This document shows positions 25,914-50,912 of a stretch of DNA of 64,000 nt, one piece after another. This stretch comes from Treponemataceae bacterium (GTDB lineage: Bacteria; Spirochaetota; Spirochaetia; Treponematales; Rectinemataceae). The notes under the pieces were generated by a model. It was not told the DNA's origin. It ran no database searches and saw nothing but the letters and a program-made list of their open reading frames with translations. Each line of letters starts with the position of its first letter. Position 1 is the first letter of the stretch. Made by a program: the position numbers and the translations under genes. The stretch lies in the NCBI GenBank assembly GCA_963678065.2, contig CAXXVZ010000003.1:1696001-1760000 (forward strand). Reading direction: 5' to 3'.

Positions 25914-27857
25914 ATGCTAAGGAGAGAAGTGTCTTCTGGTATCATCCTGACGCTGGCGCTCGCGGCTGCCCTGGTGCTGCCAACGAGCGTCTTCGCGCTC
26001 AATTATTCCGGCAGCCAGGGCAACACCGCCACCTTTGAGACCCTCGAGGAAACCCGAGTCAGCAGCCCGGCCGCCGTCGCCAACCTCGAGACCAACGTCG
26101 GCAAGCCCTTCAAGTCCCACCCCGTCCTCGACGGCTACCCGCAAGGCACGACCTACGTCTATCGCTCAGCGGAGATGTTCGGCGGACGGGCCGCGGCCAG
26201 GCTCAACACCGACATCCTGGTATTCTCCGACCAGTCCTTCGCCGGCAAAGGTCCCGCCCTCAACTACCTCAAGGACCTCGGCCTCATCAAGATCATCGAC
26301 AAGGCCATCGGCAGTGTCGTCCTCGTCACCCCCGCCGATCCCAAGGCGGGCTTCGGCCAGGCCGACCAGAAAAACTACTACGCCCTCCAGACAGCCATGC
26401 TCGCCCAGAAAGCCTCCGAAACCTCCGGCAAGGTCACGACCTACTACTCCGACGCCGAGTACTTCGGCGGCTACGGCTACACCTACGTGATCGGCATCGA
26501 CGGCGGGGCCACCTTCCTGAACAACTACGTGGCCGGCACCTTCGACTACGTCAGCAGGATCGCCGGCATGCTCCTGGTAAACGGCAAGATGGACAGCATC
26601 CGCAACGTCGCTTCCCTGGTCCCGGCCTACCTGGTCAATGCCCCGGACTCGGTCGTTGAGAAGTACAGGAAGGCCAACGGCACCGACGCCGACGCCGACG
26701 CCAGTGCTGGTGAGGTCGAGACCTTCTACAACCAGGCCTTCCCCCTCAGGAAGGTCGTCGTCAACAACGACGTGACCGCGAACTTGGCCTCCATCGTCAG
26801 CGACGCCTACTACAACCTCTTCATCAAGGCCATGAGAGTGCCCGTCATCAAGCAGGGACTCTATACCGCTGCCACCCCCTACCAGGGCTACAACTTCGAC
26901 GAGGCGCCCTACTCTCTCTGCGAGAGGAACGCCGTGATCGGCGGAGTGACCGAGGACGGGCTTCACCTGATCCGGCACAAGGAAGAACGCTTCAGCGATG
27001 TCAAGACCGCTGCTGGCGAGTACCTCCAGACCTGGTTCGAGTACCTGCCCGAGGAAGTGCTGAACAACACCGCCCCGAAGGGAAGCGTGCCCCTCATCCT
27101 GGCCAACCACGGTGGCGGGGATGACCCTCGCGTATTCGTCGACGAGATCGGCCTGCTCGCTCTCGCTGGTTCAGAAGGTTTCGCGATCGTTGCTCCCGAG
27201 AAGCAATCCATCGAAGGATCGCCAAAGGGAACCGACGTCGTGGGCGGTATCCTCAGCGATATCCTTCCCCGACTTGTGAAGTACATGCTGGCGACCTATC
27301 CGGCCCTGGATCCCTCCCGCGTCTACGTCACCGGCTATTCGATGGGTGGTGCCGCAACCTTGAACGCCCTCTACGGTGCCCCTTCGCTATTCGCCGCAGC
27401 GATCCCAATGGCGGCCGCAGGATACGTGCCGACACCGGAGCAAGCGGCAAAATTTAACGAAACTGACCTGCCGATCATGTTCGCAACCTCTACCTACGAC
27501 CGTATCTTCGCGTATGACTCCGTTGCCGGGAATATCGCGGAAGCCTATCAGACGAAGATCAAGCAATTCCTGGGTTTCAATGGTATTCCTGCATTCGAAT
27601 TCTTCGATTTCAAGGCCTTCCCGATCGCCGGATTCAAGGCTGACAAGGTCGTGAGCCTGCGGCTCAACGGAGAATACGGGAATACCACGTGGTATCTCAA
27701 CAACGACAAGGGCGTGCCGATGGTGGCCCTTACCGTGACCGAGAACCTCGTCCACGCCCTCTACCCCGAATACGCCAAGATCATGTGGGATTTCGCCAAG
27801 CACTATTCCCGCAACCAAGGCACCGGAGCGGTCGAGTACGCTCCCTTCGTCCGGTAG
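25914..27857 (+). CDS. Secreted alpha/beta-hydrolase (PHB-depolymerase/esterase-like), array copy 1, type A
   Basis: Signal peptide (VFA), HGGGDD, GYSMGG, STYD, HALYPEY; AAGGAGG RBS; TTG at 25908 alternative start. Confidence 0.8.
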   Translation: MLRREVSSGIILTLALAAALVLPTSVFALNYSGSQGNTATFETLEETRVSSPAAVANLETNVGKPFKSHPVLDGYPQGTTYVYRSAEMFGGRAAARLNTDILVFSDQSFAGKGPALNYLKDLGLIKIIDKAIGSVVLVTPADPKAGFGQADQKNYYALQTAMLAQKASETSGKVTTYYSDAEYFGGYGYTYVIGIDGGATFLNNYVAGTFDYVSRIAGMLLVNGKMDSIRNVASLVPAYLVNAPDSVVEKYRKANGTDADADASAGEVETFYNQAFPLRKVVVNNDVTANLASIVSDAYYNLFIKAMRVPVIKQGLYTAATPYQGYNFDEAPYSLCERNAVIGGVTEDGLHLIRHKEERFSDVKTAAGEYLQTWFEYLPEEVLNNTAPKGSVPLILANHGGGDDPRVFVDEIGLLALAGSEGFAIVAPEKQSIEGSPKGTDVVGGILSDILPRLVKYMLATYPALDPSRVYVTGYSMGGAATLNALYGAPSLFAAAIPMAAAGYVPTPEQAAKFNETDLPIMFATSTYDRIFAYDSVAGNIAEAYQTKIKQFLGFNGIPAFEFFDFKAFPIAGFKADKVVSLRLNGEYGNTTWYLNNDKGVPMVALTVTENLVHALYPEYAKIMWDFAKHYSRNQGTGAVEYAPFVR

Positions 27858-27999
27858 GCGAGAAGTCTTCAGCAATGGCGAAGTCGCGGAAGGTGGAATC
27901 TGCGCCAGCCTTCCGCGACCCGGTTTGGGGCGCAGGTAGAACAGGCGATATTGATGGCGACATCAATACGTATACGGATACCCAATGGAGGGAAGAAAC

Positions 28000-29934
28000 A
28001 TGTCCAAGAAGCGAATCTCGTTCGTGATCGCTCTGGCGCTGGCGGCGGCACTTTTGCTGCCCGTGAGCGTCTTCGCGCTCAACTACTCAGGCAGCCAAGG
28101 GAACGCCGCCACCTTCGAGACCCTCGAGGAAACCCGCCTCAGCAGCCCGGCTGCCGTCGCCAACCTCGAGACCAACGTCGGAAAGCCCTTCAAGTCCCAC
28201 CCCGTCCTCGACGGCTACCCCAAGGGCACGACCTACGTCTATCGCTCGGCCGAGATGTACGGCGGACGGGCCGCGGCCAGGCTCAACACCAACATCCTGG
28301 TCTTCTCCGACCAGTCCTTCGCCGGCAAAGGCCCTGCCCTCAACTACCTCAAGGACCTCGGCCTCATCAAGATCATCGACCAGGCCGTAGGCAGCGTCGT
28401 CCTCGTCACCCCAGCCGATCCCAAGGCGGGCTTCGGCCAGGCCGACCAGAAGAACTACTACGCCCTCCAGACAGCCATGCTCGCCCAGAAGGCTTCGGAG
28501 ACCTCCGGCAAGATAACGACCTACTACTCCGACGCCGAGTACTTCGGCGGCTACGGCTACACCTACGTCATCGGCATCGACGGCGGGGCTACCTTCCTCA
28601 ACAACTACGTGGCCGGCACCTTCGACTACGTCAGCAGGATAGCCGGCATGCTCCTGGTCAACGGCAAGATGGACAGCATCCGCAACGTCGCTTCCCTGGT
28701 CCCGGCCTACTTGGTCAACGCCCCGGACTCGGTCGTTGAGAAGTACAGGAAGGCCAACGGCACCGACGCCTACGCCAGGGAAGGCGGGGTCGAGACCTAC
28801 TCCAACCAGGCCTTCCCCCTCAGGAAGGTCGTCGTCAACAACGACGTGACCGCGAACTTGGCCTCCATCGTCAGCGACGCCTACTACAACCTGTTCATCA
28901 AGGCCATGAGAGTGCCCGTCGTGCTGCAGGGGCTCTACACCGCCGCCACCCCCTACCAGGGCTACAACTTCGACGAGGCGCCCTATTCCCTCTGCGACAG
29001 GAACGCCGTGATCGACGGGGTGACTGCGGACGGGATCCACCTGATCCGCCATAAGGAAGAACGCTTCAGCGACGTCAAGACCGCGGCTGGCGAGTACCTT
29101 CAGACCTGGTTCGAGTACCTGCCCAAGGAAGTGTTGAACAACAGCGCCCCGAAGGGAAGCGTGCCCCTCATCCTGGCCAACCACGGTGGCGGGGATGATC
29201 CTCGCGTATTCGTCGACGAGATCGGCCTGCTCGACCTTGCCGGCTCGGAACGCTTCGCCATCGTGGCCCCGGACGAACAGTACCTCTGGACGACGAAGAA
29301 AGACGATCCGACGGCTGAAATGACCTGCGAAGTGACGCCTCGCCTCGCAAGGTACATGCTGGCGACCTATCCGGCCCTGGATCCCTCCCGTGTCTACGTC
29401 ACCGGCTACTCCATGGGCGGCGGCGCTACGCTCAAGAACCTGAATGGCGACCCCTCGTTGTTCGCGGCGGGGATCGTCATGGCCGCCTCGAGCTATGTTG
29501 GGACGCCTGCCCAGGTCGCCGTATTCAACAAGATCGATCTGCCTGTCATGTTCTGCACGTCGTCCTTTGACATGCCCGCGGTCGGAGCCTTCGACCAGGC
29601 CACGGGAACAATCGCCGCCGGCTTCCAAAAGCAGATCAACCTCTTCCTCGGCTATAACGGAATCCCGAAAATCAGCGCGTTTGACTTCGCCGCGTATCCG
29701 ATCGCCGGATTCAAGGCCGACAAGGTCGTGAACGAGACGCTCAACGGCGAGCACAAGAATACCCGTTGGTTCATGAACAACAGCGATGACGTACCCATGG
29801 TCGCCCTCAGCTTCACCGAGGACCTGGTGCATGCCCTGTATCCGGAATACGGCAGGGTCCTGTGGGATTTTGCCAAGCACTATTCCAGGAATCCAGAGAC
29901 CGGCGCGATCCGCTACAACCCCTACATCAAATAA
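28000..29934 (+). CDS. Secreted alpha/beta-hydrolase, array copy 2, type A
   Basis: MSKKRISF signal peptide; HGGGDD, GYSMGG, HALYPEY. Confidence 0.8.
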   Translation: MSKKRISFVIALALAAALLLPVSVFALNYSGSQGNAATFETLEETRLSSPAAVANLETNVGKPFKSHPVLDGYPKGTTYVYRSAEMYGGRAAARLNTNILVFSDQSFAGKGPALNYLKDLGLIKIIDQAVGSVVLVTPADPKAGFGQADQKNYYALQTAMLAQKASETSGKITTYYSDAEYFGGYGYTYVIGIDGGATFLNNYVAGTFDYVSRIAGMLLVNGKMDSIRNVASLVPAYLVNAPDSVVEKYRKANGTDAYAREGGVETYSNQAFPLRKVVVNNDVTANLASIVSDAYYNLFIKAMRVPVVLQGLYTAATPYQGYNFDEAPYSLCDRNAVIDGVTADGIHLIRHKEERFSDVKTAAGEYLQTWFEYLPKEVLNNSAPKGSVPLILANHGGGDDPRVFVDEIGLLDLAGSERFAIVAPDEQYLWTTKKDDPTAEMTCEVTPRLARYMLATYPALDPSRVYVTGYSMGGGATLKNLNGDPSLFAAGIVMAASSYVGTPAQVAVFNKIDLPVMFCTSSFDMPAVGAFDQATGTIAAGFQKQINLFLGYNGIPKISAFDFAAYPIAGFKADKVVNETLNGEHKNTRWFMNNSDDVPMVALSFTEDLVHALYPEYGRVLWDFAKHYSRNPETGAIRYNPYIK

Positions 29935-30054
29935 GTCTTCGCCCCCCGATCGCCCGAAGGAGAATAGCTACGGCGCCTGCCCTCCTTCGGGCCGTTCGGG
30001 GATAGGGCATGATCACCATGGCATACGCCGTATCGAACAAACACGGAGGTCTAT

Positions 30055-31986
30055 ATGGTAAAACCAAGATCCTTTCTGATGATCGTCCTGGCGCTCGCGA
30101 TAGCTTTGACGCTACCGTTGAGCATATTCGCTGCGAACCTCTATACTGGCAGCCAGGGAAACACCGCCACCTTCGAAACCCTCGAGGAAACCCGCCTCAG
30201 CAGCCCCAAAGCCGTCGCCAACCTTGAGACCAACGTCGGCAAGGCCTTCAAGTCCCACCCCGTCCTCGACGCCTACCCCAAGGGCACGACCTATGTCTAT
30301 CGCTCGCCCAATCTCAACGGGGGAAGAGCCGCCGCCAGGCTCAACACCGACATCCTGGTCTTTGCCGAGAAAACCTTCGCCGACAAGGGCGCCGCCCTCA
30401 AGTACATCGATGACCTTGGCCTGATCGACATCATCAACCAGGCCATCGGCAGCGTCATCCTCGTCACCCCATCCGATCCCAAGGCCGGCTTCGGACAGGC
30501 CGACCAGAAGAACTACTACGCCCTCCAGACCGCCATGCTCGCCCAGAAGGCTTCGGAGAGAGCTGGCACGGTCACGACCTACTACTCCGACGCCGAGTAC
30601 TTCGGCGGTTTCGGCTACACCTACGTGATCGGCATCGACGGCGGAGCCACCTTCCTGAACAACTACGTCGCCGGCACCTTCGACTACGTCAGCAGGATAG
30701 CCGGCATGCTCCTGGTAAACGGAAAGATGGACAGCATCCGCGCCGTCGCCTCCCTGGTCCCGACCTACCTGGTCAACGCCCCTGACTCGGTCGTGGAGAA
30801 GTACAAGAAGGCCAACGGCACCGACGCCAACGCCAGGGCCGGCGAGGTCGAGACCTTCTACAACCAGGCGCTTCCGCTCAAGAAGGTCGTGGTTGCAAGC
30901 GATGCGTATCCCGACGCAGGGAAGTACATCAAGGACGCCTACTACAACCTCTTCATCAAGGCCATGCGCCTGCCCGTGCTCAAGCAGGGCTTGTTCAGCG
31001 CCTCCACTCCGTATCAGAGCTACAACCTCGACCAGGCGCCGTACTCCCTCTGCGAGCGGAACGCCGTGATCGACGGGGTGACCGAGGACGGGATCTATGT
31101 CGTCAAACACAATGAGGATAGGTTCAAGGACCTTAAGACCCCGGAAGGCGACTATCTCCAGATATGGTTTGAGTACCTCCCCGATGAAGTCTTCAGTGGG
31201 ACAGCCGCGAAGGGGACGGTTCCCCTCATCCTGGCCAATCACGGAAGCGGTGACGATCCTCGCGGTCTCGTCGACGAACTCGGCTTGCTCGACCTTGCTG
31301 GGAAAGAGCGTTTCGTCGTCGTCTCCCCCGAACATCAGTACATCAGCGGCGAATCCAAGACGATAGAGCTAAAAGCCCTGCCCGCCCTTGTTGAATACAT
31401 GCTGGCTACCTACCCTGCCCTGGACCCCTCCCGCGTTTACGTCATGGGCTACTCCATGGGCGCCGGCGCGACGCTCAAGGCGATCTACGGCAAACCTTCC
31501 CTTTTCGCGGCCGCGGCTCCGATGTCGCCGATACCGGGTTTCGGGGCGCCCTATGCCCCGACTGACGCTGACATGGCTGTCTATGCTGGTATCGATCTGC
31601 CTGTCCTCTTCGAGACGTCCGAGAACGACCTCGCCGTCACCTTCGACCAGAAACTGCAAGGTATTTCTCCCGCGTACCAGACGATCTTTAGAAGATTCCT
31701 CGGCGTCAACGAATTGAAGCCCATCGAGTCCTTCGACTTCGACACGTATAAGCTCAGCGGATTCAAGGCTGACAAGGTCGTGAGCCTGCGGCTCAACGGA
31801 GAATACGGGAATACCACGTGGTATCTCAACAACGACAAGGACGTGCCGATGGTGGCCTTGACCATCACCGAAGGCCTTGTCCATGCCCTCTACCCCGAAT
31901 ACGCGAAGCTCGGCTGGAATTTTCTCAAGCACTACTCGCGCGACCAGAAAACCGGCGAGATCAAGTACGACCCCACGATAAAATAA
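30055..31986 (+). CDS. Secreted alpha/beta-hydrolase, array copy 3, type A
   Basis: Signal peptide; HGSGDD, GYSMGA, HALYPEY. Confidence 0.8.
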   Translation: MVKPRSFLMIVLALAIALTLPLSIFAANLYTGSQGNTATFETLEETRLSSPKAVANLETNVGKAFKSHPVLDAYPKGTTYVYRSPNLNGGRAAARLNTDILVFAEKTFADKGAALKYIDDLGLIDIINQAIGSVILVTPSDPKAGFGQADQKNYYALQTAMLAQKASERAGTVTTYYSDAEYFGGFGYTYVIGIDGGATFLNNYVAGTFDYVSRIAGMLLVNGKMDSIRAVASLVPTYLVNAPDSVVEKYKKANGTDANARAGEVETFYNQALPLKKVVVASDAYPDAGKYIKDAYYNLFIKAMRLPVLKQGLFSASTPYQSYNLDQAPYSLCERNAVIDGVTEDGIYVVKHNEDRFKDLKTPEGDYLQIWFEYLPDEVFSGTAAKGTVPLILANHGSGDDPRGLVDELGLLDLAGKERFVVVSPEHQYISGESKTIELKALPALVEYMLATYPALDPSRVYVMGYSMGAGATLKAIYGKPSLFAAAAPMSPIPGFGAPYAPTDADMAVYAGIDLPVLFETSENDLAVTFDQKLQGISPAYQTIFRRFLGVNELKPIESFDFDTYKLSGFKADKVVSLRLNGEYGNTTWYLNNDKDVPMVALTITEGLVHALYPEYAKLGWNFLKHYSRDQKTGEIKYDPTIK

Positions 31987-32107: not shown

Positions 32108-34039
32108 ATGTCCAAGAAACGAATCTCGTTCGTGATCGCGCTGGCGCTCGCGGCGGCACTGGTGCTGCCCCTGAGCGTCTTCGCGCTCAACTACTCAGGC
32201 AGCCAGGGCAACCTAGCCACCTTCGAAACCCTCGAGGAAACCCACCTCAGCAGCCCGACCGCCGTCGCCAACCTCGAGACCAACGTCGGCAAGCCCTTCA
32301 AGTCCCACCCCGTCCTCGACGGCTACCCGCAGGGCACGACCTACGTCTATCGCTCGGCCGAGATGTACGGTGGACGGGCCGCGGCTAGGCTCAACACCGA
32401 CATCCTGGTCTTCTCCGACCAATCCTTCGCCGGCAAGGCCCCTGCCCTCAACTACCTCAAGGACCTCGGACTCATCAAGATCATCGACCAGGCTGTCGGC
32501 AGCGTCATCCTCGTCACCCCCGCCGATCCCAAGGCTGGCTTCGGACAGGCCGACCAGAAGAACTACTACGCCCTCCAGACCGCCATGCTCGCCCAGAAGG
32601 CTTCGGAGACCTCCGGCAAGATAACGACCTACTACTCCGACGCCGAGTACTTAGGCGGCTACGGCTACACCTACGTCATCGGCATCGACGGCGGGGCCAC
32701 CTTCCTCAACAACTATGTCGCCGGCACTTTCGACTACGTCAGCAGGATAGCCGGCATGCTCCTGGTAAACGGCAAGATGGACAGCATCCGCGGCGTAGCC
32801 TCCCTGGTCCCGGCCTACTTGGTCAACGCCCCGGGCTCGGTCGTGGAGAAGTACAAGAAGGCCAACGGCACCGACGCCTACGCGAGGACTGGCGAGGTCG
32901 AGACCTTCTACAACCAGGCCTTCCCCCTCAGGAAGGTCGTCGTCAACGGCGACGCGACCGCCAACCTGGTCTCCATCGTCAGCGACGCCTACTACAACCT
33001 CTTCATCAAGGCCATGCGGGTGCCCGTCATCAAGCAGGGGCTCTACACCGCCGCCACGCCCTACCAGGGCTACAACTTCGACGAGGCTCCCTACTCCCTC
33101 TGCGAGCGCAACGCCGTGATCGACGGGGTGACCGAGGACGGGATCTGCCTGATCCGCCACAAGGAAGACAGGTTCGGCAACATCAAGACGCTTGACGGCG
33201 AATACCTGCAGACCTGGTTCGAGTACCTGCCCAAGGAAGTGCTGAACAATACTGCCCCCAGAGGCAGCGTACCATTCATACTCGCGATGCATGGAGGCGG
33301 GGATGATCCTCGCGTATTCGTCGACGAGATCGGTCTGCTGGCCCTCGCGGGGAAAGAACGTTTTGCGATGGCGGCCCCAGAGCATCAATACCTCGGATTC
33401 ATACGAAAGGACAATAAGCAGATAGAGGGCATTCTTTGCGATGTGCTGCCGCAATTCGTACAGTACATGTTGGCGACCTATCCAGCCCTGGACCCTTCCC
33501 GCGTCTATGTCACCGGCTATTCGATGGGCGGCGGCGCGACCCTGAGAGCCATAAACGGGAATCCATCGCTTTTCGCCGCGGCGGTACCTATGGCGGCTTC
33601 CAGTTACATAGGCACGAAAGAGCAAGTCGCGCAGTTTGCCACCTACGACCTGCCTATCATGTTTACCACTTCTTCCTTCGATCTTGGCGGTGCATTCGAC
33701 CAAGCCAACGTCACTATTGCGACCGGTTACCAGAGCTTGATCAACCTCTTTCTCGAATATAACGGGATCCAGAAGATCAATGCTTTCGACTTTGGTACCT
33801 ATCCTATTTCTGGTTTCAAGGCGGCCACTATAAATCGCGTAACCCTCAACAACGAGTATATAAACACCCGCTGGTACATCAACAATTCAGATGGAATCCC
33901 GATGGTTGCCCTTAGCTACACAGAAAACTTGATCCACGCGCTTTACCCCGAATACGCCAAGATCATGTGGGAATTCTCCAAGCATTACTCAAGAAATCAG
34001 ACAACCGGTTCTGTAGTGTACGATCAATCTGCAAAATAG
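32108..34039 (+). CDS. Secreted alpha/beta-hydrolase, array copy 4, type A
   Basis: Signal peptide; HGGGDD, GYSMGG, HALYPEY; AT-richer 3' half. Confidence 0.8.
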   Translation: MSKKRISFVIALALAAALVLPLSVFALNYSGSQGNLATFETLEETHLSSPTAVANLETNVGKPFKSHPVLDGYPQGTTYVYRSAEMYGGRAAARLNTDILVFSDQSFAGKAPALNYLKDLGLIKIIDQAVGSVILVTPADPKAGFGQADQKNYYALQTAMLAQKASETSGKITTYYSDAEYLGGYGYTYVIGIDGGATFLNNYVAGTFDYVSRIAGMLLVNGKMDSIRGVASLVPAYLVNAPGSVVEKYKKANGTDAYARTGEVETFYNQAFPLRKVVVNGDATANLVSIVSDAYYNLFIKAMRVPVIKQGLYTAATPYQGYNFDEAPYSLCERNAVIDGVTEDGICLIRHKEDRFGNIKTLDGEYLQTWFEYLPKEVLNNTAPRGSVPFILAMHGGGDDPRVFVDEIGLLALAGKERFAMAAPEHQYLGFIRKDNKQIEGILCDVLPQFVQYMLATYPALDPSRVYVTGYSMGGGATLRAINGNPSLFAAAVPMAASSYIGTKEQVAQFATYDLPIMFTTSSFDLGGAFDQANVTIATGYQSLINLFLEYNGIQKINAFDFGTYPISGFKAATINRVTLNNEYINTRWYINNSDGIPMVALSYTENLIHALYPEYAKIMWEFSKHYSRNQTTGSVVYDQSAK

Positions 34040-34154
34040 TGGCCTTTTCCATTGCCGAGCTGGCAAGGGATTTTTATTTGGCAATGCGACCTCGCCAGCT
34101 CATACCGCTATTCAGATGTGGACGATGTTTTAATCATGAAGAATGGAGGAAGAT

Positions 34155-36032: not shown

Positions 36033-36074
36033 GAAGAAAGCAAGATGCGTCCGGAAACAACCAAAGGAGCAATT

Positions 36075-37958: not shown

Positions 37959-37992
37959 AGTTTAGCGTAAAGCTGTTCGGGCTACGCAGCTC

Positions 37993-40318: not shown

Positions 40319-40518
40319 GAATGATAAAACGTCAACCGGGTTCTAGGTGAAGAGGGTATCCTGTAGCGGAGGGATCCGATACGGGAAGGCTATTGCTCGT
40401 CATGGTTTATGGCTTACGAGGCCGGTAAGGAGAATGAGGAGTAAAGTGCGCCTAATCGTCAATACAGAAAAAAAGAAAAATAAGGTGGATCCCAATTTGT
40501 CCTTGTATTCATGAATTT

Positions 40519-41385: not shown

Positions 41386-41642
41386 AGAAACGCATTCTCG
41401 ACCTGGAGTTGCCCAATCTGCTTGAAGAGCTCGTCCTGCTTCTCTTGGGCTACTTCTGCTTCCTTGTCCTTCCCTGATCTTTCAAAGAGCGTGGCTACTT
41501 GATCGACCACATGCTTTTTCCATTGGGCAATCTGATTCGGATGCACTCCATAGATTTGGGACAGTTCCTGAAGGGTTTTCTCGTTCCGGACTGCTTCCAT
41601 GGCCACTTTGGCCTTGAAGCTGGTGTCGTAGCTTTTGCGCAT
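41340..41642 (-). CDS. IS3 transposase OrfA (HTH)
   Basis: RKSYDTSFKAKVAMEA..YGVHPNQIAQWKK..IGQLQVENAFLKKK. Confidence 0.9.
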   Translation of the reverse strand: MRKSYDTSFKAKVAMEAVRNEKTLQELSQIYGVHPNQIAQWKKHVVDQVATLFERSGKDKEAEVAQEKQDELFKQIGQLQVENAFLKKKYRQVYGSEPNL

Positions 41643-41826
41643 GGTGTACTCTATGCCTCCCGTATCTTTTTTTACAAGGAGGAATGTCACCTTATTTCCC
41701 TTTGTTTCCTGTCTGATTTCTTGGGCTCATTATAGAGCCTAGCCGCATCATTCAATGACCCGCGAGGTCGAATAGGAGAATGGGCCCGATCCACCGCATC
41801 GAACCTATATCGGATGGGGAGAGGAT

Positions 41827-42915: not shown

Positions 42916-42983
42916 TGCCGGCGTAGCCGGGCAATTTCGGATTCGTGTCGACCACCCGGTTGACATTTTATAGGAGAAGGATC

Positions 42984-44876
42984 ATGAAGAAACTATTCTG
43001 TGCTGCGCTATCGATCTGCCTTCTGTTGAGCGCAAGCGCAGCCTTCGCGCTCGACTACAAGCAGCATTTCGACAACAATGCCACGTTCGAGACCCTGAAA
43101 GAGGCCCACACCAACGGAGCCTTGTACCTGAGTTCGGCTACCGGCAGGACCTATGTGCCCGATCCGGCGCTGGACAGCTACCCGGATGAAACCACCTATG
43201 TCTATCGTTCCGCCAGGATGTATACCTGCCTGAGCGCCGCCAACCGCATGAACACCACCATCCTGCTGTACTCGGACAAATCCTTCAACGGCAAGGAAGC
43301 GGCCCTGTCCTACATAAAGAGCCTGGGACTGACCGACATCATCGACAAGGCCTATGGCAGCGTGGTGCTGGTAACCCCTATCGACAAGAAAGGCGGCTTC
43401 GGCGCCGCCGACCAGTATGCCTACTACCAGCTGCAGTCCGCCATGGCCAACATCGACTTCTCAAAGAAGGTAGATGACAAGACCACCGTGTATTATGCGG
43501 ATGGCCCGTATTTCGGGGGCCAGACGTACCGCTACCTCATCGGCGTCGACGGCGGGGCTACCTTCCTGAACAACTATGTAGCCAGCACCTTCGACTACGT
43601 CAGCAGGATAGCGGGCATGCTCCTCGTCAACGGCAAGATGGAAAAGGTTCGGAAGGTCGCCTCGAGCGTTCCCGTGTACCTGGTGAACGCTTCCGATGAA
43701 ATCGTCGAGAAGTATAAGGAAGCCAACGGCACGAATGCCTCAGGCTACGAGCGTGGATTCCGCTACTACTTCAACCAGGCAAAGAGCCTGGAGAAGGTCG
43801 TCGTCAACCAGGACGCCAAGCTCGGCGCCGACTTGGTCAGCGACGTGTACAACACTTTCTTCATCAAGGCCATGCGCATTCCCGTGCTCAAGGCCGGCCT
43901 CAACGCCGCTTCCACCGTATACAACAATTACAGCTACAATCAGGCTCCCTACTCCCTGTGTGAGCGGAACGCCATCATCGACGGCAGGACGAAGGACGGG
44001 ATCAACGTCATCGAGCACAAAGAGGACAGCTTCAAGAGCATCGCCACCAAGACAGGCGAGTACATCCAGACCTGGTTCGAGATCCTGCCCGACGAGGTGC
44101 TGAACAACACCGCGCAGGCGGGCACCGTTCCCCTTTGGCTTTCCTGCCACGGCGGCGGCGACGACCCCGTGCAGTTCACGGACGAGATCGGTCTTCTCAA
44201 ACTGGCCGGCGAGGAGCGCTTCGCCATGGTCGCGCCCTCCTATCAGAACGTCTATTCCGACAGCGTAGTCTGCGGAAAAGCCATGTGTGCCACAGTGGAG
44301 ATGATGCTCAAGAAATACCCGGCCCTGGATGCCTCGCGCGTCTACGTGACCGGCTACTCCATGGGCGGCGGGACTACGGTGACTTCCTTCATGAATGATG
44401 TCAGGATGTTCGCCGCCGCCATACCGATGGCTGCCGGCTCACTGAAAGGCACCGACGATCAGATCGCCAGTTTGAACAAATACGGCCTGGCCTTCATGCA
44501 GCTCACCTCTTTTTATGACCCGGTGGCCTTCAATGCCGCGACCGGCACCCCAAAAGAGATGGTTGAAATCAACATGAACGCCTATCTGAGGTTCAACAAG
44601 ATCAACAGGACCATCGATAAGTTCGATTACGCGACTTATCCTGTCAGCGGCTATAAGGCGGATCGCTATATCGAAAGCACGTTGAACGGCGAATATACCA
44701 ACAAGCGCTGGTTTTTCATGAACGAGGAGGGAGCCCCCCTGGTTGGCTTCTGCTTTACCGACGATCTCATCCATGCCCTGTATCCGGAGTATGGATATAT
44801 GGCCTGGGATTTCGCCAAGCACTTCTCCCGCGACAAGGCTACGGGGAAGATTCTCTATACCCCTTTTGTCAAGTAA
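42984..44876 (+). CDS. Secreted alpha/beta-hydrolase, array copy 8, type B
   Basis: MKKLFCAAL signal peptide; HGGGDD, GYSMGG, HALYPEY. Confidence 0.8.
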   Translation: MKKLFCAALSICLLLSASAAFALDYKQHFDNNATFETLKEAHTNGALYLSSATGRTYVPDPALDSYPDETTYVYRSARMYTCLSAANRMNTTILLYSDKSFNGKEAALSYIKSLGLTDIIDKAYGSVVLVTPIDKKGGFGAADQYAYYQLQSAMANIDFSKKVDDKTTVYYADGPYFGGQTYRYLIGVDGGATFLNNYVASTFDYVSRIAGMLLVNGKMEKVRKVASSVPVYLVNASDEIVEKYKEANGTNASGYERGFRYYFNQAKSLEKVVVNQDAKLGADLVSDVYNTFFIKAMRIPVLKAGLNAASTVYNNYSYNQAPYSLCERNAIIDGRTKDGINVIEHKEDSFKSIATKTGEYIQTWFEILPDEVLNNTAQAGTVPLWLSCHGGGDDPVQFTDEIGLLKLAGEERFAMVAPSYQNVYSDSVVCGKAMCATVEMMLKKYPALDASRVYVTGYSMGGGTTVTSFMNDVRMFAAAIPMAAGSLKGTDDQIASLNKYGLAFMQLTSFYDPVAFNAATGTPKEMVEINMNAYLRFNKINRTIDKFDYATYPVSGYKADRYIESTLNGEYTNKRWFFMNEEGAPLVGFCFTDDLIHALYPEYGYMAWDFAKHFSRDKATGKILYTPFVK

Positions 44877-44939: not shown

Positions 44940-46871
44940 ATGTCCAAGAAACGAATCTCGTTCGTAATCACGCTGGCGCTCGCGGCGGCACTGGTGCTGC
45001 CCCTGAGCGTCTTCGCGCTCAACTACTCAGGCAGCCAGGGAAACACCGCCACCTTTGAGACCCTCGAGGAAACCCGCCTCAGCAGCCCCAAAGCCGTCGC
45101 CAACCTCGAGACCAACGTCGGCAAGGCCTTCAAGTCCCACCCCGTCCTCGACGCCTACCCCAAGGGCACGACCTATGTCTATCGTTCGCCCAATCTCAAC
45201 GGGGGAAGAGCCGCCGCCAGGCTCAACACCGACATCCTGGTCTTTGCCGAGAAAGCCTTCGCCGACAAGGGCGCCGCCCTCAAGTACATCGATGACCTTG
45301 GCCTGATCGACATCATCAACCAGGCCATCGGCAGCGTCATCCTCGTCACCCCGGCCGATCTCAAGGCAGGCTTCGGACAGGCCGACCAGAAGAACTACTA
45401 CGCCCTCCAGACCGCCATGCTCGCCCAGAAGGCTTCGGAGAGAGCTGGCACGGTCACGACCTACTACTCCGACGCCGAGTACTTCGGCGGTTTCGGCTAC
45501 ACCTACGTGATCGGCATCGACGGCGGAGCCACCTTCCTGAACAACTACGTCGCCGGCACCTTCGACTACGTCAGCAGGATAGCCGGCATGCTCCTGGTCA
45601 ACGGCAAGATGGACAGCATCCGCGCCGTCGCCTCCCTGGTCCCGACCTACCTGGTCAACGCCCCTGACTCGGTCGTGGAGAAGTACAAGAAGGCCAACGG
45701 CACCGACGCCTACGCCAGGACTGGCGAGGTCGAGACCTTCTACAACCAGGCGCTTCCGCTCAAGAAGGTCGTGGTCGCAAGCGATGCGTATCCCGACCTG
45801 GGGAAGTACATCAAGGACGCCTACTACAACCTCTTCATCAAGGCCATGCGCGTCCCCGTCGTCAAGGGTGGCTTGTACACTGCATCGACTCCATACCAGG
45901 GCTATGGTCTTGATCAAGCACCCTATTCCCTCTGCGACAGGAACGCTGTGATAAATGGAGCAACTGAAGACGGGATCCAATTCCTTCGCCGCACTGATGA
46001 GCGCTTCGGCGACGTCAAGACAATCGATGGCGAATACTTGCAGACTTGGTTCGAGTATCTCCCCAAAGAGGTATTGAATAATACTGCTCCTAAAGGAAGC
46101 GTCCCGCTCATACTCGCGATGCATGGCAGCGGGGACGATCCTCGCGGATTTGTCGACGAAGCTGGCTTGCTCGAAATTGCGGGCAAGGAACGTCTCGCTG
46201 TTGTGGCTCCAGAGCATCAATATATTTTCTGGACACAGCAGGGGAACAAGTATCTGGAAGGCATAGAATTAACCGTTATCCCTCGTTTGGTGCGATACGT
46301 ACTCAAGACCTACCCCGCCTTGGATCCCTCCCGCGTCTATGTAACAGGCTATTCCATGGGAGGGTATGCAACGTTCAAGGCAGTCCACGGTGACGCATCA
46401 CTATTCGCCGCAGCGGTGGCCATGGCCGGTATGGGCTATACACCAACTGAGGAACAAGCAGCACAATTCGATAAGATCGATATGCCCATCATGATGACTA
46501 CTTCAACAAACGATCTAGGCGTCGTATTCGATCAATCTGTATGGGGCATCGGTTCAAGTTATCAAGGCCAACTTCCGCTCTTCCTCGGATATAACGGCAT
46601 GAAAAAAATAGAAAAATTCGATTTCGCTTCCTATCCAGTTTCTGGATTCAAGGCTGACAAGGTCGTGAGCCTGCGGCTCAACGGAGAATACGGGAATACC
46701 ACGTGGTATCTCAACAACGACAAGGGCGTGCCTATGGTGGCCCTTACCGTGACCGAGAACCTCGTCCACGCCCTCTACCCCGAATACGCCAAGCTCATGT
46801 GGGAATTCGCCAAGCACTATTCCCGCAACCAAGGCACCGGGGCAATTGAGTACGCTCCCTTCGTCCGGTAG
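44940..46871 (+). CDS. Secreted alpha/beta-hydrolase, array copy 9, type A (mosaic)
   Basis: Signal peptide; HGSGDD, GYSMGG, HALYPEY. Confidence 0.8.
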   Translation: MSKKRISFVITLALAAALVLPLSVFALNYSGSQGNTATFETLEETRLSSPKAVANLETNVGKAFKSHPVLDAYPKGTTYVYRSPNLNGGRAAARLNTDILVFAEKAFADKGAALKYIDDLGLIDIINQAIGSVILVTPADLKAGFGQADQKNYYALQTAMLAQKASERAGTVTTYYSDAEYFGGFGYTYVIGIDGGATFLNNYVAGTFDYVSRIAGMLLVNGKMDSIRAVASLVPTYLVNAPDSVVEKYKKANGTDAYARTGEVETFYNQALPLKKVVVASDAYPDLGKYIKDAYYNLFIKAMRVPVVKGGLYTASTPYQGYGLDQAPYSLCDRNAVINGATEDGIQFLRRTDERFGDVKTIDGEYLQTWFEYLPKEVLNNTAPKGSVPLILAMHGSGDDPRGFVDEAGLLEIAGKERLAVVAPEHQYIFWTQQGNKYLEGIELTVIPRLVRYVLKTYPALDPSRVYVTGYSMGGYATFKAVHGDASLFAAAVAMAGMGYTPTEEQAAQFDKIDMPIMMTTSTNDLGVVFDQSVWGIGSSYQGQLPLFLGYNGMKKIEKFDFASYPVSGFKADKVVSLRLNGEYGNTTWYLNNDKGVPMVALTVTENLVHALYPEYAKLMWEFAKHYSRNQGTGAIEYAPFVR

Positions 46872-48011
46872 GCGAGAAGTCTTCAGCAATGGCGAAGTCG
46901 CGGAAGGCGAAATCTGCGCCAGCCTTCCGCGACCCGGTTTGGGGCGCAGGTAGAACAGGCGATATTGATGGCGACATCAATACGTATACGGATACCCAAT
47001 GGAGGGAAGAAACATGTCCAAGAAGCGAATCTCGTTCGTGATCGCTCTGGCGCTGGCGGCGGCACTTTTGCTGCCCGTGAGCGTCTTCGCGCTCAACTAT
47101 TCAGGGAGCCAAGGGAACGCCGCCACCTTCGAAACCCTCGAGGAAACCCGCCTCAGCAGCCCGGCTGCCGTCGCCAACCTCGAGACCAACGTCGGAAAGC
47201 CCTTCAAGTCCCACCCCGTCCTCGACGGCTACCCCAAGGGCACAACCTACGTCTATCGCTCGGCAGAGATGTACGGCGGACGGGCCGCGGCCAGGCTCAA
47301 CACCAACATCCTGGTATTCTCCGACCAATCCTTTGCCGGCAAGGCCCCTGCCCTCAACTACCTCAAGGACCTCGGACTCATCAAGATCATCGACCAGGCG
47401 ATCGGCAGTGTCATCCTCGTCACCCCCGCCGATCCCATGGCGGGCTTCGGCCAGGCCGACCAGAAGAACTACTACGCCCTCCAGACAGCCATGCTCGCCC
47501 AGAAGGCCTCCGAAACCTCCGGCAAGATAACGACCTACTACTCCGACGCCGAGTACTTAGGCGGCTACGGCTACACCTACGTCATCGGCATCAACGGCGG
47601 AGCTACCTTCCTGAACAACTACGTGGCCGGCACCTTCGACTACGTCAGCAGGATAGCGGGCATGCTCCTGGTCAACGGCAAGATGGACAGCATCCGCAAC
47701 GTCGCTTCCCTGGTCCCGGCCTACCTGGTCAACGCCCCGGACTCGGTCGTTGAGAAGTACAGGAAGGCCAACGGCACCGACGCCTACGCCAGGGAAGGCG
47801 GGGTCGAGACCTACTCCAACCAGGCCTTCCCCCTCAGGAAGGTCGTCGTCAACAACGACGTGACCGCAAACTTGGCCTCCATCGTCAGCGACGCCTACTA
47901 CAACCTGTTCATCAAGGCCATGCGCGTCCCTGTCGTGCTGCAGGGGCTCTATACCGCCGCCACCCCCTACCAGGGCTACAACTTCGACGAGGCGCCCTAT
48001 TCCCTCTGCGA
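46644..48011 (+). repeat. Near-identical ~1.37 kb direct repeat of 27630-28997
   Basis: Constant offset 19014 across gene tail, intergenic region and next gene's 5' half. Confidence 0.9.
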
Positions 48012-48915
48012 GCGCAACGCGCTGATCAGCGGCGAGACAAAGAACGGGATTAGCTTGATCGCGCATAATGGCGAAAAACGCTTCGCGAGCATGAAATCCC
48101 AGAGTGGCGAATACCTCGATACTTGGTACGAATATCTCCCCAAGGAAGTGCTTAACAACACCGCCCCGAAGGGAAGCATCCCCCTCATCCTCGGCAACCA
48201 TGGCGGCGGAGACGATCCCCGCCTGTACATCGACGAAATGGGAATCCTGGCCCTTGCGGGAAATGAACGCCTCGCTGTTGTCGCAGCCGACCACAACAGC
48301 CTCAGCAACGATGTCAGGGGCCCCGCCCTGGCAGCGCTCGTCAAATACATGCTGGCGACCTATCCGTCGCTGGATCCTTCACGTGTCTACGCCATAGGCT
48401 ACTCCATGGGTGGCGGGGCGACGTACACGGTGTCGTATTACCAGCCCAGCCTATTCGCGGCCGTGGCCCCTGTGGCGGGCACGAATATCGAGCCCACCCA
48501 AGAAGAAGTCGCCAAGTTCGCGAGCTGCCAACTCCCGATTTATCTTTCAACCTCTTCGTACGACGTACGCCGTCTCCAGGAAGCCTGTGGAAGGATCAAC
48601 GACAACCTCGCCAACCAGGTAAAGCGCTGGTCTGGTTTTAACGGCATCGCGCCATTCGCGTTCGATTTTGTCACCTATCCGCTCTCAGGCTTCAAAGGGG
48701 ATTCCTTCACCATTCGGACATTGAATGGCGAATACGCGTCCTATACCTGGTATCTGAACAATGCTAATGGGGTCCCTATGGTAGCGCTCAACTACGTCCA
48801 GGATCTTATCCACGCGCTGTATCCCGAGTACGCAAATATCGCCTGGGAATACATGAAGCATTTTTCCAGGAACCAGCAGACTGGCGGAATCCAGTTTAAC
48901 CCGCACATAAAATAA
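47014..48915 (+). CDS. Secreted alpha/beta-hydrolase, array copy 10, type A
   Basis: Signal peptide; HGGGDD, GYSMGG, HALYPEY. Confidence 0.8.
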   Translation: MSKKRISFVIALALAAALLLPVSVFALNYSGSQGNAATFETLEETRLSSPAAVANLETNVGKPFKSHPVLDGYPKGTTYVYRSAEMYGGRAAARLNTNILVFSDQSFAGKAPALNYLKDLGLIKIIDQAIGSVILVTPADPMAGFGQADQKNYYALQTAMLAQKASETSGKITTYYSDAEYLGGYGYTYVIGINGGATFLNNYVAGTFDYVSRIAGMLLVNGKMDSIRNVASLVPAYLVNAPDSVVEKYRKANGTDAYAREGGVETYSNQAFPLRKVVVNNDVTANLASIVSDAYYNLFIKAMRVPVVLQGLYTAATPYQGYNFDEAPYSLCERNALISGETKNGISLIAHNGEKRFASMKSQSGEYLDTWYEYLPKEVLNNTAPKGSIPLILGNHGGGDDPRLYIDEMGILALAGNERLAVVAADHNSLSNDVRGPALAALVKYMLATYPSLDPSRVYAIGYSMGGGATYTVSYYQPSLFAAVAPVAGTNIEPTQEEVAKFASCQLPIYLSTSSYDVRRLQEACGRINDNLANQVKRWSGFNGIAPFAFDFVTYPLSGFKGDSFTIRTLNGEYASYTWYLNNANGVPMVALNYVQDLIHALYPEYANIAWEYMKHFSRNQQTGGIQFNPHIK

Positions 48916-49010
48916 GTTAGCCTTACCGCCGTACCACAAAAAGCTAGCTTACTGAGGGAGGACAAAAGCGTGCTTACAACCACACTACCTCTTAAAAGGA
49001 GATACTCAAG

Positions 49011-50912
49011 ATGAAAAAACTGCTCAGCCTGTTTCTGATACTGTACGTGATGATTCCCATCAGCGCATTCGCGCTCAACTATAAGCTGCATCTGCCCAAC
49101 GATGCCACCTTCGAAACCATGGAAGAAGCGCACGCGAATGGCTCGGCATGGCTGGCGAAAGTCACCGGGCGCCCCTATGCTCCCGATCCCGCGATGGACA
49201 GCTACCCTGTGGGCACTTCATGGGTGTATCGCGCCCCCGGCATGTACACCTGCATGACCGCCGCGCTGCGCATGAACACCAACTTCCTGGTGTACACCGA
49301 CAAGTCGTTTGCATCCAAGAACGATGCGTATGCGTACATCAAGGACATGGGGCTGGTGGATACCGTAAACGCATGCTACGGCAGCATCGTGCTGGTCACC
49401 CCCATCGACAAGAAAGCGGGCTTTGGCGACGCCGACCAGTATGCGTTCTATCAACTGCAGAGCGCCATGTGCAACTTGACCTATGCGGCCGGCACACGCG
49501 GCAAGCCCGATTTTGCCTATTATGCCGATAACTCCTACTACGGCGGCCTGACCTACCGCTACGCCATTGGCATTGGCGGCGGCGCGAACTTCCTGAACGA
49601 CTATGTCGCCTCCACCCTGGACTACGTTTCCCGCATGGCGGGTATGCTGCTGATTAACGGCAAAATGGACGCCGTCCGCGAGGTTGCCTCTCCTGTGCCC
49701 GTTTACCTGGTCAACCCCGGCGATGGCGTTGTGGAAAAATACAAAGCGGGCAACCGTACCGATGCTTCGGGGTATGAAGGCGATACGCAAATCTTCTTCA
49801 ACCAGCAGCTTCCCCTGCGGAAGGTGTGCGTGGAGCAGATCAAGAACATCGATCTGAAGGCGATGGTGGCGAAGGTGTATGAAGGCCTGTTCGTCAAGAC
49901 CTTCCGCAACGCCGTGGCCAACCCCTCGCTCTACACCCCCGGCACCCCCTACCGCAATTACAACTGGAACAAGGCCCCCTATTCGCTGGGCGCGCGCGTG
50001 GCTTTCTATACTGGCAAGACCGCGGGCGGACTTTGCGTGGCGGAGCACTTTGAGGAGCGCTTCGCCGACATAAAGACGACAACGGGCGAGTACCTGCAAA
50101 CCTGGTTCGAGGTCCTGCCCCAGGAAGCGCTGGACGGCACGGCGGTGAAGGCTTCCATCCCGCTGATTCTGGCCATCCACGGCGGCGGTGACGATGCCCT
50201 GCAGTTTGTGGACGAAACCGGCCTTCTGCCCATCGCCGAAAAGGAGCGCATTGCCATCGTCGCGCCCAACAACAGCGTGCTCGCCGTTGACAACGTGGCC
50301 ATGCCTGCGCTGGTGCGCTATATGCTGGCCGCCTATCCCGCGCTGGACGCTTCCCGCGTATATGTGACGGGCTACTCCACCGGCGGCATGGGCACGTGCG
50401 CCGCCACCTACGGCGCTCCGGAGCTCTTTGCGGCGAGCGTGCCCATGGCGGCGGGCAACCCCCCTTCAGCAACAATGCCCACTGGTAAGTACGACCCCAC
50501 CGATGCTCAGGTTGCCAATATCGCCAAGTACGATATGCCCATCATGATCATGTGTTCCACGTATGAAGGTTTCTTCGATCGCAATGTCGGCGGCCTGGAT
50601 GCGCGGTATCAGACCTATCTGACCACCTTCCTGTCCGGCAACCACATGGATCCCATCACATTCGACTTTGCAACCTACCCCAGGTCCGGCTTCAAGGCTG
50701 ATAGGTACTCCCGCACCGTGCTCAACGGCGAATATGTCGCCAACAATTGGGTGCTAAATAAGAACGGCATCCCCATGTTGAGCCTGAACATCACCGAAGG
50801 TCTGCCCCATGGCCTGTATCAGGAATACGGCGTGCTGGGCTGGAACTTCATGAAGCACTACGCCCGCGATCCGAAAACCGGCAAACTGAGGTATAACGTC
50901 AACGGTTTCTAA
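49011..50912 (+). CDS. Secreted alpha/beta-hydrolase, array copy 11, type B (most divergent)
   Basis: Signal peptide; HGGGDD, GYSTGG, HGLYQEY. Confidence 0.8.
   Translation: MKKLLSLFLILYVMIPISAFALNYKLHLPNDATFETMEEAHANGSAWLAKVTGRPYAPDPAMDSYPVGTSWVYRAPGMYTCMTAALRMNTNFLVYTDKSFASKNDAYAYIKDMGLVDTVNACYGSIVLVTPIDKKAGFGDADQYAFYQLQSAMCNLTYAAGTRGKPDFAYYADNSYYGGLTYRYAIGIGGGANFLNDYVASTLDYVSRMAGMLLINGKMDAVREVASPVPVYLVNPGDGVVEKYKAGNRTDASGYEGDTQIFFNQQLPLRKVCVEQIKNIDLKAMVAKVYEGLFVKTFRNAVANPSLYTPGTPYRNYNWNKAPYSLGARVAFYTGKTAGGLCVAEHFEERFADIKTTTGEYLQTWFEVLPQEALDGTAVKASIPLILAIHGGGDDALQFVDETGLLPIAEKERIAIVAPNNSVLAVDNVAMPALVRYMLAAYPALDASRVYVTGYSTGGMGTCAATYGAPELFAASVPMAAGNPPSATMPTGKYDPTDAQVANIAKYDMPIMIMCSTYEGFFDRNVGGLDARYQTYLTTFLSGNHMDPITFDFATYPRSGFKADRYSRTVLNGEYVANNWVLNKNGIPMLSLNITEGLPHGLYQEYGVLGWNFMKHYARDPKTGKLRYNVNGF

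Follow-up and report, generated by a model that had tools for sequence, protein, structure and literature searches.

The esterases nearest in fold to the proteins described here belong to the Esterase_phb group (ESTHER), which with its neighbours includes polyhydroxybutyrate (PHB) depolymerases, acetyl-xylan esterases and feruloyl esterases (PMC12103068). We analyse here an array of eleven genes, c1 to c11, in a 64,000-nucleotide stretch of the genome of a Treponemataceae bacterium (GenBank assembly GCA_963678065.2, contig CAXXVZ010000003.1, positions 1,696,001 to 1,760,000), called the window below, whose own numbering is used throughout. We hold it to be rather likely that 25.7 kb of this window are a probably horizontally acquired insertion encoding eleven predicted secreted two-domain proteins, which would be serine esterases acting on esterified polymers. 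The proteins form an uncharacterised and widespread two-domain branch of the Esterase_phb/CE1-like alpha/beta-hydrolases, and the array is probably a toolkit of borrowed enzymes rather than a library that arose by local diversification.

The best fold matches of both domains of the array proteins are members of the Esterase_phb group: LtPHBase of Lihuaxuella thermophila (8daj/9byu) and, from fungi, the CE1 acetyl-xylan or feruloyl esterases AoAxeB (9j07/9j08), AsFaeE (8iy8) and AlAxeA (5x6s). With the catalytic half they share the alpha/beta-hydrolase core, an HG-type oxyanion loop, a GxSxG elbow and a Ser-Asp-His set. However, identity over the fold alignments is 14-15%, and the known enzymes consist of a single catalytic domain of about 240-300 amino acids, whereas the array proteins carry in front a second copy of the fold, devoid of nucleophile, and about 85 residues between Asp529 and His616, with three beta-strands in the model of c2. 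LC-Est1 (3wyd), which has a long N-terminal extension, and EstA of Thermotoga maritima (3doh) resemble the array family in that a non-catalytic N-terminal part precedes a C-terminal esterase domain; in the array proteins, however, this part has itself an alpha/beta-hydrolase fold, and EstA_Ig_like (PF18435) was not reported in any of the 11 copies (Pfam, E 0.01). Multi-esterase proteins of bacteria that degrade polysaccharides, e.g. those with the CBM48-CE1 modules of 7b6b (among our fold matches), likewise gather two alpha/beta-hydrolase modules of esterase type in one secreted polypeptide. Both of their modules are thought to be active, whereas the first module of the array proteins has lost its nucleophile and the pair is a fixed unit of about 640 amino acids.

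As for the way in which the genes evolved, a parallel exists in the tpr genes of Treponema pallidum, which encode outer-membrane antigens and whose homogenised terminal regions and distinct central regions are attributed to gene conversion. In contrast, the array encodes enzymes of an environmental spirochaete, and its distinct regions are old orthologous subfamilies, not fast-varying cassettes. No description of the two-domain family or of such arrays was found in the full-text literature, subscription journals not being covered, and no curated family includes the N-half, so that the opinion of an earlier note on this DNA, which did not recognise a described system, is upheld.

Results

Layout of the array and architecture of the proteins

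Between positions 25908 and 50912 of the plus strand, 11 open reading frames (ORFs) of 629-649 codons follow each other in the same orientation and free of internal stops (Table 1). Pairwise identities sort their products into type A (c1-c4, c9 and c10) and type B (c5-c8 and c11, the latter an outlier at 54-57%), so that, read from c1 to c11, the types run A A A A B B B B A A B. Any two type A copies share 77-98% of their residues in the N-half and 51-69% in the C-half. The leader of every copy is made up of a K/R-rich segment, a hydrophobic core (mean Kyte-Doolittle value of 2.8-3.2 over 12 residues) and a cleavage-type motif x-F-A|L/A; by our own rule of thumb these leaders are predicted to be Sec signal peptides. 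The intact co-oriented paralogues in two ordered types, their signal peptides and the contrast between the two halves had been put forward in the earlier note from the letters alone, and are all borne out. The likely starts of c1 (25914), c2 (28000) and c10 (47014) are backed by ribosome-binding sites and by the starts of public proteins, and c1 is identical to database protein P0004. The long ORFs lying antisense to the array genes are the usual by-product of G+C-rich coding DNA.

The AlphaFold model of the full c2 protein (pLDDT, the predicted local distance difference test, 83.1; pTM, the predicted template-modelling score, 0.83) consists of two globular parts with a linker of low confidence between them. 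Modelled alone, the N-domain of about 310 residues (pLDDT 90.9) adopts an alpha/beta-hydrolase fold and matches 9byu with a Z of 17.7 (root mean square deviation 2.8, 213 residues aligned), 9j08 with 16.7 and 3wyd with 14.3. The place of the nucleophile in its elbow, position 199 (G197-I-D199-G-G in c2), is occupied in 111 family sequences by Asp (80), Gly (19), Asn (8) or Glu (4); the window copies c6, c10 and c11 are examples of the three minor residues (Table 1). At the canonical place these sequences have no conserved His; the best His column (83 of 111) lies elsewhere. Because neither nucleophile nor His is conserved, the N-domain is predicted to be a pseudo-hydrolase that has kept the alpha/beta-hydrolase fold.

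In the C-domain of about 300 residues, Ser476, His616 and Asp404 are found in 111 of the 111 sequences, His400 in 110 and Asp529 in 107. The scaffold motifs listed in the earlier note (H400-G-x-G403-D404-D405, Y462-P-x-L-D-x-S-R-V-Y471, G474-Y-S476-M/T-G478, S526-x-x-D529 and H616-A/G-L-Y619) are present, and invariant or nearly so both in a set of 29 and in the 111 family sequences. Sequence and model support the prediction that this domain is a serine esterase of the Esterase_phb/CE1-like kind, and the secreted serine alpha/beta-hydrolases with a Ser-Asp-His set that had been proposed stand as a prediction. Conservation within the catalytic domain is lowest at 431-450, 501-520, 531-550 and 561-570 (c2 numbering), segments with insertions and deletions that come after strands beta4, beta6 and beta7, and the loops after these strands are where alpha/beta-hydrolases build their substrate pocket.

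The Pfam matches of the 11 copies are short and weak ones to alpha/beta-hydrolase families (Peptidase_S9, PETase, DLH, Esterase_PHB), all of them in the C-half; the first ~370 residues of every copy remain without a match. Esterase_PHB (PF10503) appears in one copy of the 11, at 16.0 bits for a cutoff of 23, and TIGR01840 scores 41.0-42.8 bits for a cutoff of 107.85 in the three copies tested. In the fold search (Foldseek), the C-domain comes closest to 8daj (E 6.2e-13) and 9byu (E 9.2e-13), entries of a Lihuaxuella esterase of the PHB depolymerase family (TMt 0.61-0.64), followed by the fungal CE1 enzymes 8iy8 (E 1.4e-8), 9j07 and 5x6s (E 5.3e-8) and by T. maritima EstA and LC-Est1C; the likeness to CE1 is one of fold (8iy8, 5x6s). 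A profile of the family compared with PDB sequences retrieves 3wyd (LC-Est1C, E 4.5e-10) and 3doh (E 6.7e-9) over ~60-110 positions around the oxyanion loop and the elbow. The nearest known enzymes are thus those of the PHB-depolymerase/CE1 esterase group, but the proteins fall short of the curated cutoffs of PF10503, TIGR01840 and NF050058.

Different histories of the two halves

In a tree of C-halves, seven of the eleven copies (c2, c3, c5, c7, c8, c9 and c10) have sisters from other phyla, with 96-100 support in the Shimodaira-Hasegawa-like approximate likelihood ratio test (SH-aLRT). The C-half of c10, for instance, belongs to a subfamily with members in Solibacteraceae, Acidobacteriaceae and Limiplasma-like Bacillota, and that of c2 is sister to L026_10082. 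Monophyly of the six A-type C-halves is rejected by the approximately unbiased (AU) test (dlnL 359, p 9e-49). In the tree of N-halves, on the other hand, c1, c2, c3, c4, c9 and c10 make a single clade (support 97-99). For the same subfamilies in other genomes the N and C trees agree, which indicates that distinct N-halves are the ancestral state.

The pocket loops follow the C-half tree. Those of c10 are 75% identical to the loops of the Solibacteraceae protein L004_8058, with 78% for the core and 54% for the N-half, whereas c10 and c2 share 97% of the N-half, 59% of the core and 21% of the loops. The loops of c5 are 76% identical to those of L055_12069; taken together, loop identities are 66-76% for c10 or c5 with their cross-phylum counterparts and 14-52% between neighbours of the array. 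The eleven catalytic halves represent at least eight old subfamilies, which also exist in Bacillota and Acidobacteriota, often side by side, each keeping its own loops after beta4, beta6 and beta7. The variable columns do fall in the predicted pocket loops, as the earlier note anticipated, but the same loops are conserved within subfamilies across phyla, and the idea of an enzyme library diversified around the pocket has to be abandoned for this array. Pairwise ratios of nonsynonymous to synonymous changes (dN/dS) go in the same direction: they lie at 0.08-0.37 in type A, similarly in both halves, and do not exceed 0.52 in any pair or half, so that values of 0.1-0.5 give no sign of diversification.

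The synonymous distance (dS) between type A genes is 0.13-0.44 in the N-half and ~0.9-2.1, or saturated, in the C-half. Sliding windows along the DNA reveal mosaics: identity between c2 and c10 is 86-100% as far as about column 360 (94-100% in 10 of 12 windows) and falls to 47-67% beyond it, with a single exception of 83% in one 30-codon window; over columns 60-270, c3 matches c9 at 98-100%; c1 and c9 are close (88-97%) in the 3' tail only; and c7 and c8 have their leader in common. Because of this low dS and of the mosaic breakpoints, the constancy of the N-half would be a product of recombination, most simply gene conversion, and not of stronger constraint alone. The order of the genes is partly common with arrays of Bacillota: L055 and L017 present c10-like, c3-like, main, c5-like and c9-like copies, and the window c3, c4 (main), c5, c6-c8, c9 and c10, which hints at inheritance as a block.

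Integrity of the array and variation between strains

Short-read contigs (Logan) of four runs were aligned to the array; no RNA run is among the sequencing runs listed as carrying this DNA. X1 and X2 belong to two studies and are possibly the source samples; X5, a groundwater metagenome, and X7 differ from the window by ~1-2.4% and represent independent strains. The c2/c3 junction is bridged by contigs from all four studies, and c4/c5, c5/c6/c7, c8/c9, c9/c10 and the passage from c10 through c11 to the flank by contigs from two or three of them. Contigs of X1 and X2, with zero mismatches on the array, bridge c2/c3, c4/c5, c5/c6/c7, c8/c9 and c9/c10, and one contig of 4430 bases connects the C-half of c10, by way of c11, with the ABC transporter genes. 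On a single 838-kb contig, a second public assembly encodes counterparts of c2 and c4 with protein identities of 98% and 95%. Two joints of X1 that go back along the array fall in the repeated N-halves. A joint 36744>43885 (X1, X2) was disregarded, having 21 letters on one side and a depth of 2-3.7.

The content of the array seems to vary between close strains. In X7 (~2.4% diverged) a contig passes from the end of c7 straight into the spacer that precedes c9, which indicates a strain devoid of c8; the same run gives no cover at 95% identity or more over 33468-38115 (c5, c6), a blank which is not proof of absence.

A gap of 2.9 kb, absent from the earlier note, separates c7 from c8 and holds an element of the IS110 family with an IS3-family element nested in it (Table 1). 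The point of insertion of the IS110 element is exactly the ribosome-binding site of c8, with ATAAGGAG on the left and ATAGGAG retained on the right; c8 is thereby severed from any upstream promoter. Run X5 contains the joint of the empty site (40313>42972), skipping both elements, and the joint 40438>41735, which skips the 1296 bases of the IS3 element, is present in the four runs compared. Other runs carry the IS110 element without IS3, and in X7 the same IS110 lies in unrelated flanks.

Genomic setting

The array follows an intact araA gene, which ends 105 bases before c1, and faces on its right an operon of sugar ATP-binding cassette (ABC) transporter genes, where ytfT-, ytfR- and ytfQ-like genes come after the yjfF-like gene up to 56125 and transcription converges on the array. 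In the relative G010 the stops of araA and yjfF lie ~50 bp apart amid the same flanking genes (72-89% identity): a 753-aa protein (87%), a lacI fragment, a ribulokinase-like gene and araA, then yjfF, ytfT, ytfR and ytfQ (75-89%). As these stops adjoin there, the 25.7 kb that part them in the window are an insertion, and probably a horizontally acquired one. The comparison of copy numbers among relatives, which the earlier note proposed, gave none: at E 1e-30 no match to c2 was found in 40 genomes (24 from the same family and 16 from the same order, with completeness of 90% or more in most), while araA is present in 20 of 41, G000 included. The array is thus physically embedded in an arabinose locus, as had been said, but the flanks that meet in G010 mark it as inserted there; the arabinose context is probably coincidental, and a functional tie is not needed to explain the position. 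Transcriptional read-through from araA into c1 is possible.

At the right edge of the inserted segment a 145-codon ORF overlaps the stop of c11; it has no Pfam or NCBIfam match, nor any tblastn match in G010, G003 and G016, and may be spurious or cargo.

Table 1. Features of the array and its surroundings (window positions; residues for the parts of c2)
Feature	Position	Strand	Remarks
araA (L-arabinose isomerase), left flank	24262..25803	+	NF002795 755.7 bits, cutoff 622; Pfam AraA_N, AraA_central, Arabinose_Iso_C
c1, type A	25908..27857	+	opens with TTG at 25908; likely start ATG 25914 behind AAGGAGG
c2, type A, copy modelled	27985..29934	+	likely start 28000
c2 parts (predicted)	residues		signal peptide ~1-31; pseudo-hydrolase domain 32-~310; low-confidence linker 310-333; esterase domain ~346-649
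c3, N-half type A	30055..31986	+	N-half 94% identical to c9; C-half of subfamily L055_8103/L017_4226/L026_6043
c4, type A, main subfamily	32108..34039	+	
c5, type B	34143..36032	+	C-half sister to L055_12069 + L017_8187 (SH-aLRT 100)
c6, type B	36045..37958	+	Glu at N-domain elbow
c7, type B	38195..40105	+	ORF opens 37886; C-half sister to L055_874 + L055_2870 (SH-aLRT 96)
IS110-family element	~40313..42976	+	transposase 41827-42915; Pfam DEDD_Tnp_IS110, Transposase_20
IS3-family element inside IS110	40439..41734	-	orfA 41340-41690, orfB 40519-41295; Pfam HTH_Tnp_1, rve
c8, type B	42984..44876	+	ORF opens 42945; C-half sister to Blautia copy L058_7943 (SH-aLRT 99)
c9, N-half type A	44940..46871	+	C-half in clade L001_120/L055_13987/L017_10109 (SH-aLRT 99)
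c10, chimera	46999..48915	+	likely start 47014; N-half 97% identical to c2; C-half in subfamily of Solibacteraceae L004_8058; Asn at N-domain elbow
c11, divergent type B	49011..50912	+	GYSTGG; Gly at N-domain elbow
145-aa ORF, right edge of insertion	50909..51346	-	no family match; overlaps c11 stop
yjfF-like sugar ABC permease, right flank	51496..52494	-	NF008630 433.8 bits, cutoff 363

Further to the left, the DNA upstream of araA (19163-24286) looks like the debris of rearrangements. It contains a 146-aa ORF that joins a LacI helix-turn-helix (residues 29-58) to an arsenate-reductase-like part (54-140), a 228-aa piece on the minus strand matching positions 95-283 of acetolactate synthase, a 494-aa ORF that has the C-terminal domain only of ketol-acid reductoisomerase (a homologue lies near araA in G016) and a 341-aa ribulokinase-like ORF, which matches the model of 554 positions in two stretches only. 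Between 5083 and 19092, large ORFs of 617, 730 and 753 aa without Pfam or NCBIfam family adjoin a DUF6259 protein and a RpiR/SIS regulator; this is probably an uncharacterised sugar-utilisation cluster.

Distribution of the family

Of 7999 proteins scored in a word-indexed search, 981 matched at E<=0.001; identity is 60-98% in the 120 that were listed, and coverage of the query reaches at least 95% in all except two of these. Scanning one genome per species confirmed 163 stretches in 65 loci, labelled Acidobacteriota (25), Bacillota (18), Pseudomonadota (6), Thermodesulfobacteriota (5), Planctomycetota (2), Verrucomicrobiota, Lentisphaerota and Spirochaetota (1 each), i.e. eight named phyla, with six loci bearing no phylum label. 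At least two copies stand within 10 kb in 29 of the 65 loci and at least five in six, the maximum being eight (L055, a Bacillota metagenome-assembled genome, MAG); the arrays of 5-8 copies come from MAGs labelled Lachnospiraceae, Clostridia, Candidatus Limiplasma and Bacillota. Tandem arrays are thus typical of the family, and the eleven copies of the window make the largest one seen.

The profile of the N-domain retrieves 313 representatives at E<=0.001, of which 76 at 1e-30, among 1.84 billion cluster representatives. Almost all the matches are N-terminal in proteins of ~600-660 residues or in fragments, and a few lie inside proteins of 1.2-2.0 thousand residues. In the 15 long matches scanned, the N-domain is accompanied by COesterase, Esterase_PHB, Putative esterase, GDSL, EstA_Ig_like, BD-FAE, glycoside hydrolase family 3 (GH3) or SLH domains. 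Some of the genes that flank the family elsewhere (Pfam on 128 ORFs of 19 loci) encode tannase, carboxylesterase or glycoside hydrolases of families GH95, GH29, GH43, GH31 and GH36.

Three two-copy loci (L063, L064 and L065), from MAGs labelled Acidobacteriota, Krumholzibacteria and Desulfobacterales, are nearly identical, with branch lengths of 0-0.04, as a consequence either of very recent transfer or of mis-binned or mislabelled contigs. G000 has three further two-domain paralogues, very distant ones (E ~1e-6 to c2), two of them in tandem (L079, 2405-4282 and 4399-6303) and the other at L080, 3491-5467; the elbow reads GQSxG in their C-part and GYGNG or GYGDG in their N-part. Directly downstream of the tandem in L079 stands a gene for a 744-aa secreted protein with the motif HGHADHYG, of metallo-beta-lactamase type, and proteins in which Lactamase_B domains are fused to the N-domain occur in other organisms (P0232, P0252, P0262).

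Discussion

Looking at the window only, one could imagine that a single ancestral gene was amplified here, with a catalytic half diversifying under positive selection and an N-half held constant by constraint: the N-halves of type A are far more alike than the C-halves, and the least conserved segments are the loops after beta4, beta6 and beta7, predicted to shape the pocket. This scenario is highly improbable, since the C-halves are polyphyletic with sisters in other phyla, since their loops are conserved within subfamilies across phyla, and since dN/dS is low in every pair and half; moreover the dS of the N-half is several-fold under that of the C-half, which constraint on the protein cannot produce. 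That the array be an artefact of assembly, by collapse or expansion of repeats, is scarcely credible. Certainly N-halves up to 98% identical in protein (up to 100% in DNA for 30-codon windows) over ~1 kb are hard for short reads, and the short-read contigs do break within them; yet contigs without mismatch span six inter-copy junctions and the right flank, the diverged strains X5 and X7 bridge c2/c3 and c10-c11-flank, the second assembly places its c2- and c4-like proteins on one contig, and every copy is anchored by its unique C-half. The array thus withstands the suspicion of an artefact that the earlier note had raised.

If the array is a set of old catalytic subfamilies, as we propose, the nature of the enzymes must also be weighed. 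They would be true extracellular depolymerases of polyesters, polyhydroxyalkanoates (PHA), PHB or similar, and the array would target different storage or synthetic polyesters, if one trusted the best NCBIfam match, the catalytic domain of type 1 short-chain-length PHA depolymerases (e_dPHAscl_type1, NF050058; E 1e-14 to 1e-17 in the three copies tested), the best fold match, 8daj/9byu, whose entry title mentions hydrolysis of PHB, and the weak PETase matches of Pfam in 10 of 11 copies. The NF050058 scores are however 52.0-64.6 bits for a cutoff of 150, their best stretch covers positions 13-151 of 276, and no C-terminal PHA substrate-binding domain was reported by Pfam, the protein ending with its catalytic domain (whether the library holds a model of that domain was not verified). 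The same fold group, moreover, includes acetyl-xylan and feruloyl esterases (PMC12103068), and the arrays of 5-8 copies in MAGs with the labels Lachnospiraceae, Clostridia, Candidatus Limiplasma and Bacillota, like the fusions with GH3, GDSL and feruloyl-esterase-type modules, fit polyesters poorly; we regard this reading as unlikely. Some public annotations rather name such proteins 'prolyl oligopeptidase family serine peptidase', as do two of the listed homologues, and the gathering score of Peptidase_S9 (PF00326), 22.6, is reached in 7 of 11 copies (range 18.5-32.7). The match amounts to 45-68 residues around the nucleophile elbow in a profile of 213 positions, and the peptidases rank under the esterases in the fold search (TMt ~0.2). 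In the S9 family an N-terminal beta-propeller gates the active site; the N-domain of the array proteins is instead an alpha/beta-hydrolase fold (Z 17.7 to 9byu), which S9 entries match only through their catalytic domains. S9-type peptidases are therefore very unlikely.

There remain the ester decorations of plant or microbial polysaccharides (acetyl, feruloyl or other) or phenolic esters, which we favour over polyesters such as PHA with hesitation, a little short of an even chance. We lean to them because of the fusions of the N-domain, of the tannase, carboxylesterase and glycoside hydrolase genes in the neighbourhood of some loci, and of the types of organisms, modest reasons all of them. 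The organisms named in the titles of the family records are mostly dwellers of plant biomass or soil. Of the substrates considered by the earlier note, ester decorations or polyesters, the enzyme class which they imply is supported, by the serine set and by the kinship of fold with hydrolases of polymer esters, and the first substrates are those to which we incline.

Several points weigh against our interpretation as a whole. The substrate class is a guess, and the cutoffs of all named esterase families are missed. No gene neighbourhood is shared across the 19 other loci, whose 128 flanking ORFs are mostly housekeeping genes with scattered esterases, glycoside hydrolases and transporters. The triad and the placement of the variable loops are read from sequence columns and the order of strands, not from distances in three dimensions. 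The common origin of the N- and C-domains is weakly suggested by their fold, the alignment of the two halves by hhalign (E 0.043) being too weak to claim an internal duplication. As for the insertion, araA and yjfF adjoin in one of the three relatives inspected, the other two being arranged differently, and the GC content of the array (56-62%) is not distinct from that of the flanks; the scan for promoters and terminators remains at background (7 promoter-like sites for 7.2 expected, 20 terminator-like sites for 17.7). Finally the direction of recombination is deduced from parsimony, and N-halves overwritten in place or foreign C-halves imported would fit the same trees.

With these reservations, the following scheme could account for the array. 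The C-domain would hydrolyse esters by Ser476, Asp529 and His616, with the HGGGDD loop as oxyanion hole, and the loops proper to each subfamily would set different substrate specificities, so that the array would serve as a battery of esterases against a substrate of mixed chemistry. The N-domain would be a non-catalytic partner, either scaffold, lid or binding module, interchangeable between subfamilies. The array may have been assembled from a set of old subfamilies or have arrived as such; gene conversion between neighbours would then have replaced, in c3, c9 and c10, the N-half and sometimes the tail by that of the main subfamily. Interchangeable N-domains would explain why conversion could overwrite this half and leave the specificity region distinct; that region may have been preserved by selection, or have diverged too far for recombination.

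A bolder proposal, which we consider doubtful, would see here an unrecognised esterase family and a candidate new family of carbohydrate esterases, in which a pseudo-esterase is fused to an active esterase. At least eight ancient subfamilies of specificity would move between phyla as multi-gene tandem batteries, and the pseudo-esterase half would be a universal and exchangeable module for docking or polymer binding, kept uniform in each genome by gene conversion while selection protects the loops of the pocket.

Whatever its substrates, the array is a clean case of concerted evolution restricted to one domain: in six genes the history of one half has been erased while the other half consists of readable orthologues, a pattern which is open to misreading as local diversifying selection when a single genome is read. 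Members of the family are common among MAGs with the labels Acidobacteriota, Bacillota (Lachnospiraceae, Blautia, Candidatus Limiplasma) and Thermodesulfobacteriota, and none is characterised in the literature searched; the N-domain of the family would add to the alpha/beta-hydrolase repertoire a pseudo-enzyme domain that has no Pfam model. If the subfamilies differ in substrate, the array would offer a ready-made and naturally sorted panel of secreted esterases, with the decorations of plant cell walls, or polyesters, as possible substrates.

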